Source: Leptolyngbyaceae cyanobacterium
Lineage (GTDB): Bacteria > Cyanobacteriota > Cyanobacteriia > Leptolyngbyales > Leptolyngbyaceae
Assembly (NCBI GenBank): GCA_041752515.1
Contig: JBGSWI010000009.1
Coordinates: forward strand, 27 to 64,026
Length of the DNA: 64,000 nt
Reading direction: 5' to 3'
Position 1 is the stretch's first letter, and each line of letters starts with the position of its first letter. The translations under genes and the position numbers were made by a program. Below are positions 3,350 through 12,600 of this stretch, piece by piece. The notes below the pieces were generated by a model. That model had not been told where the DNA came from and did not search any database. It saw only the letters and a list, made by a program, of their open reading frames with translations.

Positions 3350-3547
3350 GTGACTCCAAAAAGCGGCATACTTCTAGCAGGTTCTTGTATCACGGCGATC
3401 GCGGCGGTTGGCTCAGTCTTTGAGTTATCCTCTGGCGAACCCGAACTGGGCGGCTTGGTCACTGGAATTATTTTGGCATTCAGTATTCCTTTAACGATTG
3501 TCTGTTTTTGGGTAGCCGTTCAAGATACGAGAGCCAATCAAAAATAA
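3350..3547 (+). CDS. small two-helix membrane protein, conserved cyanobacterial hypothetical
   Basis: 65 aa, two hydrophobic segments, follows def; no function recognised. Confidence 0.7.
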   Translation: MTPKSGILLAGSCITAIAAVGSVFELSSGEPELGGLVTGIILAFSIPLTIVCFWVAVQDTRANQK

Positions 3548-3615
3548 ATTTCTCAAATCCTGCTGAGTGTGTTGATTTTTGGCACAATTTATTGTCTCGG
3601 CAGACTTTTCTGATA

Positions 3616-4998
3616 ATGTCTGGCACTCAATCTATTGCATTTCTTCGATTGCGCTCTGGCAAACGTGGCGCTCTGCGCCGGAAACCTGATTATCCGCTGT
3701 CCATGTCTGAGCCGATGGCAATTGGGCGAGATCTATGCTGCGAAATTGTTCTAGATGCATCCCTTTATCGCTCAGTTTCTCGGCGACACGCAGAGATTGT
3801 GCCTATTTTGGAGTGTGAGTCGCCTCAGGGAGAGCGGTTTTGGCAGGTTTGCGATCTAAACAGCAGCAACGGCACATTTGTGAATGGCGATCGCTTAAAA
3901 GGATGCCAGGTTTTGCAAGTGGGCGATCGCATCATGCTGGGGCAAAATGGTCCGGAGTTAGTGTTTGAATATCACCTTCAAGCAGCAGGGCAACCGCTAG
4001 ACAATTTTGGCGTGGCACGAGGTTCATTACCGCTGGCTCTTGATCCAACTTTGCCGTCGCCTAGGAACCGTAGTAGACCGGAAGATGTCAGCTTAACTCA
4101 GTTGTTTCCAATCTTATCTACCGGGCGTGAACTGACTCAAAAAGCTTACTTGGTGCCGGCGATCGTTACCATTACGTTTGTCGTGTTGTTATTTTTGGCG
4201 ATCGGCAATCCAGCGATGTTTAACCTATTGCTGGCGGCATATCTAGCGATCGCAGCGTTATATTTCATCTATCAACTGTGCGGCAAGCGAAAGCCCTGGT
4301 GGCTGTTGATGGCAGTGGCAACCAGCACGGTCTTGATTTTGATCAGCCCCGTTTTGGATCTATTTATATTAATATTTCATCACCTTTTGCCGGGTGACTT
4401 ATCGAACACCAATGCCGCAACCAATTTTTGGGTGTTGTTGGTAAAAATGTTTTTTGGCGCGGGGTTGATGGAAGAGTTGATCAAGGCAGTGCCCGTGTTC
4501 ATCGCCTTGGGTTTGGGACTGCGGCTGCGATCGCCCTTTCGATCTCGCGTTGGCGTATGGGAACCATTGGATGGAATTTTGCTCGGTGCGGCTTCGGCTG
4601 TGGGTTTTAGCTTAATGGAAACCCTGGGAGTCTATGTTCCCGCAACCTATAAGTCCTCCCTTTTAGGAGGGCAAGAAGCCGCTCAACTCGCCGGACTGCA
4701 ACTACTGATTCCGAGGGTGTTAGGCTTGGTCGCTGGACACATGGCTTACAGCGGCTACTTTGGCTACTTCATTGGACTCAGTGTGTTGCAGTTTCGGCAG
4801 CGCTGGCTGATCTTGAGCGTTGGACTGTTTACGGCGGCTGGCTTGCACACGCTTTGGAATGCCGCAGGAATGCTGAGTCCGATTTTCCTAACATTTGTGG
4901 GTGTGCTGTCCTATGCGTTTTTGGGTGCCGCCATTCTCAAAGCACGGGCGCTTTCCCCCACGCGATCGCAAAACTTCGCTACCCGCTTTCTGCCCTGA
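3616..4998 (+). CDS. FHA domain plus PrsW-family intramembrane metalloprotease
   Basis: FHA motifs IGR, SVSRRHA, DLNSSNGTFVNG; PrsW motifs AGLMEELIK, GFSLME, HMAYSG, HTLWN; start set at ATG 3616. Confidence 0.88.
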   Translation: MSGTQSIAFLRLRSGKRGALRRKPDYPLSMSEPMAIGRDLCCEIVLDASLYRSVSRRHAEIVPILECESPQGERFWQVCDLNSSNGTFVNGDRLKGCQVLQVGDRIMLGQNGPELVFEYHLQAAGQPLDNFGVARGSLPLALDPTLPSPRNRSRPEDVSLTQLFPILSTGRELTQKAYLVPAIVTITFVVLLFLAIGNPAMFNLLLAAYLAIAALYFIYQLCGKRKPWWLLMAVATSTVLILISPVLDLFILIFHHLLPGDLSNTNAATNFWVLLVKMFFGAGLMEELIKAVPVFIALGLGLRLRSPFRSRVGVWEPLDGILLGAASAVGFSLMETLGVYVPATYKSSLLGGQEAAQLAGLQLLIPRVLGLVAGHMAYSGYFGYFIGLSVLQFRQRWLILSVGLFTAAGLHTLWNAAGMLSPIFLTFVGVLSYAFLGAAILKARALSPTRSQNFATRFLP

Positions 4999-5147: not shown

Positions 5148-5738
5148 TCACTCTAGCAGCCAGCCGAAGACTTCACCCAGGGTTAGAGTTAAGCCAGCGG
5201 CAAAAGTGGGCACAGGCAGAACGATCGCTGGATCTTCAAACGCTTTGACTTGTTGACCAGGGGAATAGACCAAAATTAGGCTTTCCTCTGGGTCAATCAG
5301 CCAGCCGAGTTGAGTGCCATGTTCCAGGCAATGCAGAATGTTGAGTGCCACGCGATTAGCACTCTGCTCAGGAGAAAGAACCTCAATCGTCCAATCGGGA
5401 GGAATGGGGAAAACGTTGGCAACTCTGCCATCAGGTTCACGCGGAATTCTTTCTTGAACAAACACTGTGACATCGGGTACGGTTGAACGACCACCATAGA
5501 CGCTACTGCGGCTTCCCGCAGGGTAGGTGCAGCGCAATTCCGGGAAAGCGCGAGCAACCTTTGCAGGTTTGAGAGCCGCATTAATAGCCCTGAGCAATTC
5601 TCCCTGAATAACACTGTGGTGTCCTTGTGGCATGGGCTTTTGAATGATTTTGCCGTCAATATATTCGCTGGCGGGCTTGGTTTCTGGCAGTTGCAGAAAC
5701 TCCTCCAAGGACACGGTTTTTGCTGGGGTTTGAACCAT
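5148..5738 (-). CDS. Uma2-family (DUF820) PD-(D/E)xK endonuclease
   Basis: LEEFLQLPETKPASEYIDG, PELRC, VPDV, PDWTIEVLSP, LGWLIDPEE. Confidence 0.92.
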   Translation of the reverse strand: MVQTPAKTVSLEEFLQLPETKPASEYIDGKIIQKPMPQGHHSVIQGELLRAINAALKPAKVARAFPELRCTYPAGSRSSVYGGRSTVPDVTVFVQERIPREPDGRVANVFPIPPDWTIEVLSPEQSANRVALNILHCLEHGTQLGWLIDPEESLILVYSPGQQVKAFEDPAIVLPVPTFAAGLTLTLGEVFGWLLE

Positions 5739-8606: not shown

Positions 8607-9377
8607 CTAAGCGCCTTTTCCAGGATCGGCGCTCATAGTGTCGAGGTAGGTAATAAACGCCTTTGCCCAAACACTTTCTTCCAGGTAGTGTTTCGTAATC
8701 TCAGCAAGGGTCGCTTTACTCGCTTTTAAATGGCGATCGGGGTTAAGCAGTTGATTGCGGAGAGTTGCCAGTTTAGTGGCATTTGGGGTTGTCGGATTGA
8801 CAATCTCAGCGTCAATGATTTCGTAGGCTTGAGTTTCCGTGGTGACTCTAGGATGCTGCTTTTGCAGATCAGCAAGAGCGGCTTTCAACTCTTGAAGCAC
8901 AGTAGTGAGTTCTGTATCCGTAGCATAGTTATGCTGAATGCCAACTTGATCATGCTGAATCGTGACATCACCTGAGTTAATGTTGCCAACTTGACCAATA
9001 TGAAATGTGGGTTGATTTTTAGACGATTCTGCCATGACGGTTACCTCGATCGCTTCCATTTGCTTTAACCATTGATCAATCCATTCTGGCGGGAATTCTG
9101 GCGCACCATTGAATGGCTTTTCTGGCTGCTCATGCAAATTTCCCACTAGACTTTCCCATTGGGTCGTGATGTCCGAGAGGAGCGATCGCAATTGGCTGGC
9201 TTCAGGCGAAAAATCTTGTCGATACTCCCCTTCAATCAACATCCAATAGCACTCCTCTGCCAACTGCACTAACCGTTGACTGGTTAAAGACTGTTGAGCA
9301 AGTTGCTCTACCTGCCTGGTGAAAGTGGTCAGCAGGAATTGAGAACTAGGTGAAATCAGGTGAGAGGTATCTACCAT
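8607..9377 (-). CDS. hypothetical two-part protein: putative immunity-like helical N-terminus, VGNIN/DQVG motif, helical C-terminal domain
   Basis: 256-aa ORF whose ATG overlaps the last codons of the upstream 100-aa ORF; carries VGNINSGDVTIQHDQVG at 8940-8990. Confidence 0.75.
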   Translation of the reverse strand: MVDTSHLISPSSQFLLTTFTRQVEQLAQQSLTSQRLVQLAEECYWMLIEGEYRQDFSPEASQLRSLLSDITTQWESLVGNLHEQPEKPFNGAPEFPPEWIDQWLKQMEAIEVTVMAESSKNQPTFHIGQVGNINSGDVTIQHDQVGIQHNYATDTELTTVLQELKAALADLQKQHPRVTTETQAYEIIDAEIVNPTTPNATKLATLRNQLLNPDRHLKASKATLAEITKHYLEESVWAKAFITYLDTMSADPGKGA

Positions 9378-9673
9378 CGATCAGTTTCCTTGCCTGTAAC
9401 AGGATCAATCTCAATATGCCCCAAGTCAATAGGTCTTTTGGGATGAACCCGAATCACTCGTCCTTGAGCATCATAGCTTTCGTACCAGGTGCGGATTGGT
9501 TTCCCCGTTGATGAATCGACTTCCACCACTAGCCGCGCCCCTGCTGTTCTTCCCGCACTTCTGGCTGGCTTATATTCGTCATAGTAGCGAATTCGCCCAT
9601 TTTGCAACACCCTAAAGCGATCGTAAGCCGCAACCCTGCGATCGTGTTCGGGAACCCAAGACAAATCAATCAC
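9371..9673 (-). CDS. putative stand-alone polymorphic-toxin-type ribonuclease (CdiA-CT/Rhs tip-like, BECR tRNase-like)
   Basis: GRIRYY...PARSAGRTAG...EVD..TG..RTWYESYDAQGRVIRVHPK pattern resembles CdiA/Rhs C-terminal tRNase domains; GTG start 15 nt after the NACHT stop. Confidence 0.65.
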   Translation of the reverse strand: MIDLSWVPEHDRRVAAYDRFRVLQNGRIRYYDEYKPARSAGRTAGARLVVEVDSSTGKPIRTWYESYDAQGRVIRVHPKRPIDLGHIEIDPVTGKETDRW

Positions 9674-9688
9674 ACGCTCAATTTAACT

Positions 9689-12600
9689 CTATTCAGAGCA
9701 TTCCCCCTCCAGCGCTGGCAATTCATACTTCACTCCCACCTGATCACCCTGAATTGTTGGCTCAATGTTTATATTTCCAACAGTCTCAGCGTTCAAATTT
9801 TCTAAGGACTCAATGATGTAAGTAGTATGAGCAGCCTGACTTTCTTCCCTTTTTCCTCTTCCCTTTGCCCTTTTGATTTCCTCCACCGCCGCCTGAGCAA
9901 TTTCGTAATTGTAGAATCCACAAAATCCCTGGATTTCAGAAATTGATTCAAAAATAGAATATTGAGGTGACGTTCTCTGAAGTTTATCTAAGTAAGGAAG
10001 AGAAATAGGTAATCTGATTTTGCCTAAAGCGCGAATTGTATCTTTTTGAACATAAGTGTCTGAGTCGCTTAAGACAGTTAGAAGTTTAGAAGCTACATAA
10101 TTGGTCTTTATTTTTTCTAATCCACGAATAGCACCTCTTCTGACAAATGGTACAGAATCCTTTAAAGCTTCAATTAACTTTTCAGTTAAAACTTCGCTGT
10201 TGATTTCTCCTAATGCATCAACAGCATAAGTTCGCACTATATCATCGTCATCTTGTAATGCAATCAAAAGCTCCTCAATATAAAAATCCCTTGCAAAATC
10301 ATTAAATTGTAAGGCAACAAAAATATTCCTACGAACTTCAAGATCTCGATGTTTAAACGCAGCTAATATACTTTGCTCATCTTTTTCAGAGATAATTCTC
10401 CCCAAAGCATAAGCTGAATTAGTTCGTACCAGTTGATGTTCATCTTTCAAAGCAGAAAGCAGTATAGAAATTGAAGTTTTAAGGCGAAGTGATAATAGTG
10501 CTTCAGCAGCCATAGACCGCACAAAAGGATGTTCATCCTGCATCATGATTGTAAAGTTAAAATCTGAGAAGTTCAATTTTCCTAAAGCGGAAACAGCATA
10601 ACCACGTACTGAAAAACAGTGATTACTTAATAATGTTTTCAATTTTGGAATTGCTGCTTTACAACCAATCCTTCCTGAAGCAAATGCTGCATTCGCCCTA
10701 ATCAAGCAAAACTCATGCTCCAAGCCTGAGAGAATCTGAAGTGAAATTTCATCGGACTTATTATCTTTTAATAGTTCGCAAGCTGCACTAATTAAATACT
10801 TATCTCTACTTTTTAAAAGTGTAGATAGAAAAGGTATGATTTGATTAGCATCAATTTCACCTAAAGCACGAATAGCACTCAGATTCACCCAAGATTCCTC
10901 ATCTTCAAGAGCTTTAACTAGCCCAGATATGGCTTTCTTGCTACCAATTTTTCCTAGAGCAGAAGCACACTTATTCCGTACTAAGGAGCTTGCATCATTC
11001 GCTAAGGTTTCTAACAGTGATTCAACTGCGACTTCAGCAACTAAGTCGCCTAACTTAGAAGCAGCCTTTCGACGAATATCTGGACATTGGTGTTTTAGAG
11101 ATTCTAATAACTCTTTAATTGACTTCTTGCTAGGAAGTTGTCCTAGGCTATCAATAGTAGTCAAACAAACTAAAATATTTTCACAATATAAGTACGGTAC
11201 AATAGCAGAAACTACAGCATCTGAACCAATCAAACCAAATGCGTAAGACAGAGTATATCGTGTATCGAATTCATCCTTGGTTAAAGAGTTTTCATTCAAA
11301 AATTTTAATAAGTAAGGGATAGCAAAATCTGATTGAGTCTGACCTAGCAGATTGATTTCAAGTATTTGTGGAATTTGACTTCCCAGGTTTAATTTAATTG
11401 CTTTCTCTTGGAATGGTGGCTTTACTCTGCCAGATAGTTTTGCACCTAGCATTAAATCCACTTCAAAAGCTATTCCTATAAAGTGAATTGTCTGAGCTTC
11501 CCTACTGATTAAACCCAGCATGAAAGCGATCGCTTCTGTCCATTTCAAATAATTCAAATAATGTTGCTTCAGTTCGCGATCGCTGAGTGTGGGAAGCAAC
11601 GTTAATAGTTTTTCGGCGGCGTAATATTCCTGAAACAGTTGGTGCAGGAACTCGATGTGGTCAAGATCTTTAACAACCAAAAGCTTGAATCTCAATAGGT
11701 CTTCCAGCCATGCTTTGGCATTTTGAGCCGGAGCTTCAACGCGACCTGTGAGGTAATCTTCTAAAATTTTTTCGGCTTTCGTTTTGGAGATAATTAACCA
11801 GGAAGGAGTTGGTTTGCAGGGATCAGTGTGAGGATCTCCCTGAATCATGGTGAAGGCGAGATGCTGGAACAATTCAGCGGTGAATCGGCGGGAGTCGCCT
11901 GAAATGGGTAAGGTGTGGGACGGTTTGAACTCTTCGTAGCGTCGAGCAAACTCTTTTTGAAACAATTCACCCCGATTTTGCGGTAGTTGTCCATCGGGGC
12001 TATCTTGCACCACATCGCAAAGAATTTTCAGGAGCAAGGGCGTTTCTGCTAGTTCTCGCAAGCGGTCTTTAAGTTGACGCAATAGGCTCTCTGCTCGTCC
12101 AGGCAATCGATTTTCAATAAACTGCTGCATCTGTGGTTCCGTAAGCGGCAGCATTTCCAGCTTTTTCTCAATGCCCAAATCTGATCCGGCTCCCAATTCC
12201 CGTGTGGTGAAGATCCGGGGATTGGTGCAAAAGTCGCGATCGCGTTGAAATTCATCCAAGGCTGACCAGGCAACACTGGTAGGCAACTCATTCAAGCCAT
12301 CGAATAAGAGCAAAAGCCGTCCGGCAAACAGCAACTCTTCGATCGCCGTCTCATCCCGCGTCACTTTTCGCAGTGACCTCTGAATCCAGTTCACAACCGA
12401 ACCATCCCGGCGATCGCGCAACTCCATCAAAACAGGAATAGTGAAATCTGCTTGTCCCTTCTCAATAGCTGCTAAAGCCTTTTGTGCTTCTTCCCAGTGC
12501 AATCGTTGTAAGGCGGTCGATTTGCCGGAGCCGGGTTTGCCAATTATCAAAACGTGGTCAGGTGCAAACGTCTGCAATCCATCCAACACCTCAAAGCGTT

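Follow-up and report, generated by a model that had tools for sequence, protein, structure and literature searches.

Among the described systems closest to the locus reported here are the amyloid signalling pairs associated with NLR-type receptors. Their hallmarks are a short motif common to a STAND sensor and its neighbour and the occurrence of split versus all-in-one architectures (10.1101/2020.01.06.895854; 10.1101/2024.11.07.622273). In bacteria they include BASS1-10, pairs with Bell domains in which the RHIM/PP/BASS3 class bears a G-phi-Q-phi-G signature (10.1101/2020.01.06.895854), and the Bab/Agp pair, BASS11 (10.1101/2024.11.07.622273). We describe a three-gene operon of ~4.2 kb in a 64,000-nucleotide stretch of contig JBGSWI010000009.1 from a Leptolyngbyaceae cyanobacterium (assembly GCA_041752515.1), the whole of which is called the window: gene 1 encodes a NACHT-HEAT STAND NTPase, gene 2 a small basic protein that a preliminary description of the window had likened to the tRNase toxin tips of CdiA and Rhs proteins, and gene 3 a partner protein with an acidic N-terminal domain (Table 1). 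Sequence comparison favours, at a probability of roughly 55%, an NLR-like module in which the NACHT-HEAT sensor would control a probable RNase toxin through motif-mediated signalling.

The operon resembles fungal NWD2/HET-S, BASS and Bab/Agp in that a motif of 20-30 amino acids (aa), rich in G/N/Q/V/I, is common to a STAND-type sensor and the product of the adjacent gene. As with amyloid signalling pairs, all-in-one fusions stand beside split versions (a domain of gene 3, CTD-A, is here fused to large proteins), and the lineage is that of multicellular cyanobacteria. Like bNACHT/Avs and the 'ternary' NTPase systems of the Aravind group (PMC8195603), the window has a presumed sensor made of a NACHT NTPase and C-terminal repeats, and an effector next door that is linked by a module common to sensor and effector. 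It differs from bNACHT/Avs and the ternary systems in that the sensor is without an N-terminal effector or adaptor, a short peptide motif at the C-terminus serves as the link, and a polymorphic-toxin domain, accompanied by an inhibitor of its own, is among the effectors. The features by which bacterial NACHT defence proteins are recognised, intact Walker A and B motifs and a C-terminal repeat sensor, are present in gene 1. The protein has no N-terminal effector domain, and orthologous operons are found in L001 and L004 (handles of this form denote loci compared with the window).

A motif common to sensor and partner

Gene 3 occurs in two forms. The long forms (237-256 aa) consist of the N-domain, a motif of ~29 aa and a helical C-terminal domain, and the short forms (103-117 aa) are encoded at loci without a large upstream gene in Hormoscilla, Xenococcus, Aerosakkonema and Pannus. 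The motif of the long forms has the consensus PTFHIxQVGNINTGDVTIQGDQ[VI]GIQxNY. When a hidden Markov model (HMM) built from gene-3 motifs alone was searched against the 82,405 six-frame segments of the 4.45-Mb genome, the significant matches were gene 3 and the tail of the NACHT-HEAT protein only (tail E=1.7e-4; next best 0.59). Aligned directly by pairwise BLASTP, the gene 1 tail and the gene-3 motif are identical at 12 of 20 positions (E=6e-5).

The motif HMM matches sensor tails in six loci (the window, L001, L004, L007, L015 and L029). At every locus with a motif-bearing long gene 3 and legible sequence upstream (5/5: the window, L001, L004, L007 and L015), the upstream protein ends in the gene-3 motif, which is carried by NACHT-HEAT proteins in the window, L001 and L004, by an LRR-Roc-COR protein in L015 and by a tail fragment in L007. 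The sensor is absent from all five of the short-gene-3 loci L008, L010, L011, L012 and L016. Functional coupling of sensor and partner through the motif is, on balance, probable.

In L015 (75-3284) a ROCO-type protein (LRR-Roc-COR-A-COR-B) with the tail motif precedes the toxin gene and a long gene 3; the motif is thus used by two unrelated classes of sensor NTPase/GTPase. A different arrangement is found in L013 (2449-7373), where the NACHT-HEAT protein has no tail motif, gene 3 encodes the N-domain followed by a coiled coil and TIR_2, and an N-terminal segment of the sensor (aa 17-55) matches the gene-3 linker with 38% identity over 39 aa (E=5e-8). The match indicates a second, different module common to sensor and partner. 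A signalling pair without any toxin gene was seen in Leptolyngbya sp. CCNP1308 (L029, 2113-6660): a NACHT-HEAT protein ending ...FHFHAPVGVVNTGSVTIEGDQKGFN is followed by a 231-aa HEAT protein and then by a 219-aa HEAT-motif-CTD-A protein, with a TIR-FGE-sulfatase gene and an NTase/HEPN pair nearby.

The toxin and its partner are distributed like a mobile accessory module: 3/401 sampled cyanobacterial genomes have the toxin, and the orthologous operons lie in unrelated neighbourhoods. Genes 2 and 3 might accordingly be viewed as a selfish toxin-immunity cassette, of the addiction or toxin-antitoxin type, that stands beside the NACHT-HEAT gene by chance and leaves the sensor uninvolved. Although this patchiness, the sensor-free occurrence in the four genera named above and the near-identity of the toxins (dN 0.026) in the sensor-free L010 and the sensor-linked L013 all speak for such a cassette, chance adjacency sits poorly with an upstream sensor that is always paired with the matching gene-3 module (the tail motif in the window, L001, L004, L007 and L015, the coiled-coil module in L013), with the absence of that module from sensor-free loci, and with gaps between genes 1 and 2 of just 15-17 nucleotides (nt) in the window, L001 and L004. 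We regard the selfish cassette as unlikely.

As to the character of the motif, it is disordered in the AlphaFold2 (AF2) model of the gene 3 product, with a predicted local distance difference test score (pLDDT) below 50 over residues 117-153. It is rich in G/N/Q/V/I and holds no K, P or L within VGNIN...DQVGIQHNY. In its G-x-Q-phi-G core and in the Q-x-N-[YF] that follows, it is similar to BASS3/RHIM examples, GVQIGDHGTQNNDF among them, and amyloid-type templating by the motif is put forward tentatively. The motif string gave no match in the literature that could be searched and is absent from the BASS pair table.

A toxin domain from Rhs and CdiA proteins

Gene 2 is a real gene under purifying selection. 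The 100-aa open reading frame (ORF) recognised in the preliminary description has a GTG start on the minus strand and conserved homologues: 30 close cyanobacterial relatives, almost all of 99-104 aa, share 63-91% identity with its product, and the ratio of nonsynonymous to synonymous substitution (dN/dS) is 0.08-0.20 in pairs with unsaturated dS. One copy looks decayed (L014, 1784-2352); its toxin carries W63R, G45E, R47C and R75G, and its partner ORF is truncated to 87 aa. Gene 2 lies, as had been pointed out, in frame with the NACHT-HEAT gene, from which it is separated by two stops (TGC TCT GAA TAG AGT TAA ATT GAG CGT GTG). Since the frame relation varies among orthologous operons, being out of frame in L001 and in frame in L004, the shared frame in the window is incidental. 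These two stops and the non-conserved frame rule out a design in which the toxin is made by read-through from the NACHT gene, in agreement with the earlier view that the two genes are no simple read-through fusion.

To find relatives of gene 2, 1.84 billion cluster representatives were searched with a profile built from the cyanobacterial clade, which returned 581 sequences at E<=1e-3 and 75 at E<=1e-10. They bear out the proposed likeness to a toxin tip, for the domain stands last in Rhs, CdiA/TPS, haemagglutinin-repeat and pre-toxin HINT (PT-HINT) proteins. In 142 of 147 distant relatives no more than 10 residues follow the domain, and the median length of sequence before it in the whole set is 150 residues; 18 of the carriers exceed 600 aa and six exceed 1000 aa. 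The long carriers bear RHS repeats, TPS with DUF637 (CdiA-type), haemagglutinin repeats (Fil_haemagg_2), DUF6531 or PT-HINT, the E-values reaching 1e-26 for a HINT-linked form and lying at 1e-14 to 1e-12 among Rhs proteins. The Rhs and CdiA versions sit past the self-cleavage/pre-toxin boundary, in the place kept for the toxin. By this homology gene 2 is almost certainly a full-length, stand-alone copy of a C-terminal polymorphic-toxin domain. Signal peptide, Rhs core and VENN are all absent from its product, as originally observed, and the domain is bare; the suggestion that it acts inside the cell is reasonable because every delivery part is absent.

Polymorphic toxins reportedly follow a framework, attributed to Zhang et al. 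in 2012, of C-terminal toxin domains with downstream immunity genes. In the Rhs and CdiA versions of the present family, ORFs of 76-234 aa overlap or abut the toxin stop, and those that were checked are acidic: L020 (Rhs) and L021 (CdiA-type) each have a 76-aa acidic ORF that overlaps or abuts the toxin stop, and the closer relatives L022-L025 have downstream ORFs of 96-234 aa. When homologues were sought with the 76-aa ORF that follows a CdiA version, no candidates came up. The window operon thus resembles these toxin tips in its homologous domain, which in carriers holds the same extreme C-terminal place, and in the small acidic ORF directly downstream, and differs from them in lacking any delivery, repeat or pre-toxin part and in having a partner to which a signalling motif and a further domain are sometimes appended. 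The toxin-domain family has neither a name, a Pfam/NCBIfam model nor a solved structure; Pfam and NCBIfam scans of 59 diverse members gave no consistent family, and Pfam, NCBIfam and PADLOC gave no match for the products of gene 2 or gene 3.

Other possible toxin cassettes were encountered at the compared loci. In L021 (8378-8910), the CdiA-type toxin and its 76-aa ORF precede a 78-aa ORF, at a guess what is left of a toxin, and a gene of the Barstar family (PF01337); together these may form an orphan cassette of toxin and immunity genes from another RNase family. A cyanobacterial contig (L027, 1-1716) carries two toxin-tip ORFs with a common leader, MKQVLKPTLQN..., and differing tips, one of which belongs to the H77-lacking clade of the gene 2 family; this contig looks like an array of orphan toxin cassettes. 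A further hit of the locus scan, L019 (5239-7194), was discarded as a false positive: it encodes a 651-aa exported protein, which by eye we take to be 5'-nucleotidase-like, that contains the string GHIEIDPATGE and is unrelated to the toxin.

The preliminary description had gone beyond homology to toxin tips and proposed that gene 2 encodes a BECR-fold, EF-Tu-dependent tRNase akin to CdiA-CT of Escherichia coli NC101, with R29, E65 and H77 corresponding to Arg200, Glu236 and His248. In NC101 CdiA-CT, Arg200 and His248 are essential, and Glu236Ala leaves tRNA cleavage in expressing cells without discernible change and attenuates toxicity only in cell-to-cell delivery (PMC5737660). The three residues had been named correctly, being those examined in that study; the motifs of gene 2 were likewise placed correctly (GRIRYY at residues 26-31 with R29, TWYESYD at 62-68 with E65 and VIRVHPK at 73-79 with H77), and the spacing R-36-E-12-H is the same in both proteins. 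It arises in 1.3% of shuffles of the gene 2 protein, the comparison being a post hoc one. Both proteins are, moreover, small alpha+beta toxin tips with a helical immunity protein or partner: the NC101 toxin (5I4Q/5I4R) is a seven-stranded sheet with helices and has a four-helix immunity protein, and here one helix and seven strands are predicted together with a four-helix partner.

These likenesses find no counterpart in direct tests of sequence and fold. A single-sequence search of PDB chains at E<=10 returned only a chance match, to isopropylmalate synthase, and a 59-member family profile searched against all PDB chains at E<=10 returned none; 5I4Q/5I4R were absent from both. None of the 59 members matched a toxin family in Pfam at E<=10, and there was no Pfam/NCBIfam match for any of them. 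The comparison with CdiA-CT tRNase structures that had been recommended was made by Foldseek with an AF2 model of pLDDT 89.5 and found no BECR or CdiA-CT structure: the top 50 contained no BrnT, colicin D/E5, RelE, barnase or CdiA-CT, and the best E was 0.36. Conservation among 136 distant relatives is the reverse of what matters in NC101, where the His is essential and the Glu dispensable for cleavage: position 77 is His in 104 and R, A, S or N in the other 32 (24%), and E65 is kept in 135. Given the failure of the sequence and fold tests and this reversal, gene 2 was not filed under the NC101 family, and its being a divergent member is very unlikely.

The residues conserved throughout the gene 2 family are R29, Y31, G41, E51, R61, W63, E65 and H86, with H77 conserved in part of the family only. 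In the same 136 relatives R29 is kept in 134, Y31 in 133, G41 in 136, E51 in 135, R61 in 130 and W63 in 135; H86 is at least 90% conserved in a MAFFT alignment. The AF2 model has a helix at residues 10-16 and seven strands, arranged as helix, hairpin, three-strand meander and two further strands; R61/E65, H77 and H86 lie on consecutive strands. In this model the active site most likely lies on an exposed beta-sheet face that carries R29, Y31, E51, R61, W63, E65 and H86. We infer that a metal-independent RNase is the most likely toxin chemistry because the domain is small and basic (isoelectric point, pI, 9.4) and has an acidic partner, because Arg, Tyr, Glu and His are conserved, with Arg, Glu and His on successive strands of the meander, and because the protein contains no metal-ligand or Zn motifs. 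That the gene 2 product is an RNase at all is given even odds. The predicted topology recalls SRLase1, a 'BECR-like' RNase with an N-terminal helix, 'pre-beta' strands, an exposed beta-meander bearing Arg/acid/His/His on successive strands (R70, D72, H85 and H97) and an extra C-terminal strand (10.64898/2026.09.18.752725). The likeness, which was drawn by description only, extends to the placing of Arg, Glu and His on successive strands of the toxin, and the spacing of the SRLase1 residues differs from that in gene 2.

A further possibility is that gene 2 encodes no enzyme or toxin here but a beta-hairpin (YD/MORN-like) adaptor or structural piece, and that output is left to the C-terminal domain of gene 3 (in L013, to TIR). 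Its xYxYDxxGRV motifs look like YD repeats, 2 of the 59 members gave weak RHS_repeat matches (E 0.12), and MORN-repeat proteins are among the weak matches of the model in a Foldseek search of BFVD, which found no neighbour; the toxin-free L029, with its sensor and motif-CTD-A protein, implies that CTD-A can be an output alone. This adaptor reading is quite unlikely, however, as the Rhs and CdiA versions hold the toxin position past the self-cleavage/pre-toxin boundary and are followed by small ORFs in the immunity-gene position, carriers that have diverged widely still keep R29, E51, R61, W63 and E65 at 96% or more, which suits a catalytic site better than it does a scaffold, and the pairing of a basic toxin and an acidic partner is what would be expected of a nuclease and its inhibitor. 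A YD-repeat fragment was for these reasons of position, conservation and charge rejected as the principal interpretation of gene 2.

The acidic partner protein

A homologue of the gene-3 N-domain (the first ~110 residues) is encoded directly after the toxin gene in 17/17 related loci. The three genes of the window are packed with a 15-nt gap followed by a 7-nt overlap (ATGGTAG) between the toxin stop and the start of gene 3; this overlap is kept in most related loci and explains the conserved protein ends, ...RW before the toxin stop and MV... at the start of gene 3. The N-domain has a pI of 4.3-5.5 across its forms, against 9.4 for the toxin. It is most likely an immunity- or antitoxin-like partner that would bind and neutralise the toxin, and genes 2 and 3 together probably constitute a toxin with its neutralising partner. 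A Foldseek search of the gene-3 model against PDB gave no significant match.

Type II antitoxins have a DNA-binding domain, are usually encoded first and autoregulate their operon. The present pair differs from such systems in that the toxin gene comes first and gene 3 has no Pfam DNA-binding domain, its four-helix bundle being without an informative fold match. Downstream of a toxin/short-partner pair in Aerosakkonema (L011, 6639-8072) lie genes for a 151-aa protein and a Fic/DOC-family protein.

The C-terminal part of long gene 3 is exchangeable: a second, unrelated domain type (...EKGGKKALEKLVDHPAAAIAIAVYEGWK) stands in for CTD-A in L001, L004 and L006. CTD-A itself occurs in 25/401 cyanobacterial genomes, where it several times ends open frames of 860-1340 aa; elsewhere it is found in a 141-aa protein made of the motif and CTD-A alone, behind a short HEAT segment, or attached directly to the C-terminal end of a large protein.

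Table 1. The three genes of the operon and their parts, by position in the window
Feature	Position (nt)	Strand	Details
Gene 1, NACHT-HEAT STAND NTPase, 1026 aa	9689-12769	minus	Pfam NACHT 4.3e-9, HEAT_2 3.5e-59
Gene 1 Walker A, GKPGSGKST	12515-12541	minus	
Gene 1 Walker B, LLLLFDGLNE	12287-12316	minus	
Gene 1 C-terminal tail motif, residues 997-1015, VGNINIEPTIQGDQVGVKY	9725-9781	minus	Matches the gene-3 motif
Gene 2, 100-aa delivery-less toxin domain	9371-9673	minus	GTG start, pI 9.4 (basic)
Gene 3, whole ORF, 256 aa	8607-9377	minus	
Gene 3 N-domain, residues ~1-115, acidic four-helix bundle	9033-9377	minus	AF2 pLDDT > 90, pI 4.3, net charge -11
Gene 3 internal motif, residues 123-151, PTFHIGQVGNINSGDVTIQHDQVGIQHNY	8925-9011	minus	Rich in G/N/Q/V/I/H, G-x-Q-phi-G core
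Gene 3 C-terminal helical domain (CTD-A), residues 155-256	8607-8915	minus	

On one side of the operon lie genes for an aminotransferase, thioredoxin and IM30, and on the opposite side those for DUF2237 and an ABC1 kinase. A few kb away are an FHA-PrsW protease fusion (3508-4998, plus strand) and a Uma2-family putative endonuclease (5148-5738, minus strand); no link of either to the operon was seen.

Proposed mechanism and its meaning

That gene 2 is toxic, acts as an RNase and is neutralised by gene 3, and that the motif carries a signal, possibly of amyloid nature, we infer from sequence; in the model proposed here these would act in turn. Gene 2 would be co-translated with gene 3, whose acidic N-domain would bind and neutralise the toxin in the manner of an immunity protein. 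A trigger sensed by the HEAT repeats would cause the NACHT protein to oligomerise, and the C-terminal motifs of the sensor, now clustered, would draw in the corresponding gene-3 motif or act as its template. The resulting change of state in gene 3 would activate its C-terminal output domain, pull the immunity domain off the toxin, or both. Freed toxin, active output domain or the two together would lead to self-arrest of the cell, an outcome of the abortive-infection type. A stricter version of the model, in which sensor activation polymerises or sequesters the immunity protein through a RHIM/BASS3-like templating motif and thereby releases an undescribed RNase-type toxin, is possible but doubtful.

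Several observations weigh against the favoured reading of the operon. In the sensor the motif is C-terminal, following HEAT repeats in gene 1 and COR in the ROCO protein, and in the partner it is internal (residues 123-151 of 256), whereas described amyloid pairs have it at the sensor N-terminus and the effector C-terminus; the sensor C-terminal placing of a templating motif is the inverse of all described amyloid-signalling topologies. The motif core reads G-[DH]-Q-[VIT]-G, so that its first phi position is polar (Asp or His), and Pfam RHIM is not matched. About half of the toxin/partner pairs are without any sensor, and the pair can thus work alone. The operon stands among housekeeping genes and not in a defence island, and PADLOC gave no meaningful match, only weak ones to repeats or P-loops. 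The gene-3 N-domain profile, compared by hhalign with the five ORFs downstream of Rhs/CdiA versions, gave probabilities below 1%. Finally, the toxin model has no structural neighbour, no Foldseek match against PDB being significant (all TM-scores < 0.42), and the RNase assignment accordingly rests on size, charge and residue types.

Further differences set the operon apart from described systems. The gene-3 N-domain is immunity-like and is not a Bell/HeLo pore former, and a separate toxin gene stands between the two motif-bearing genes, unlike in amyloid pairs. Among described defence families none was matched by the sensor, which scored 26 bits against NCBIfam EruA (cut-off 1000).

The toxin-domain family, with at least 581 cluster representatives in Rhs, CdiA and HINT carriers across bacteria, is large and unnamed, and the compact free-standing pair offers a convenient entry point to it. 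In the window a domain known from interbacterial weapons appears to be reused inside the cell together with its inhibitor, and the short motif common to the sensor C-terminal tail and the inhibitor suggests an NLR-type route by which such a toxin may be fired. If amyloid-like templating proves true, signalling of the RHIM/BASS type would be extended to a topology and to a class of output that are both new, the latter being the release of a toxin from its inhibitor. The signalling logic of prokaryotic NLRs would then be testable in a three-gene operon.

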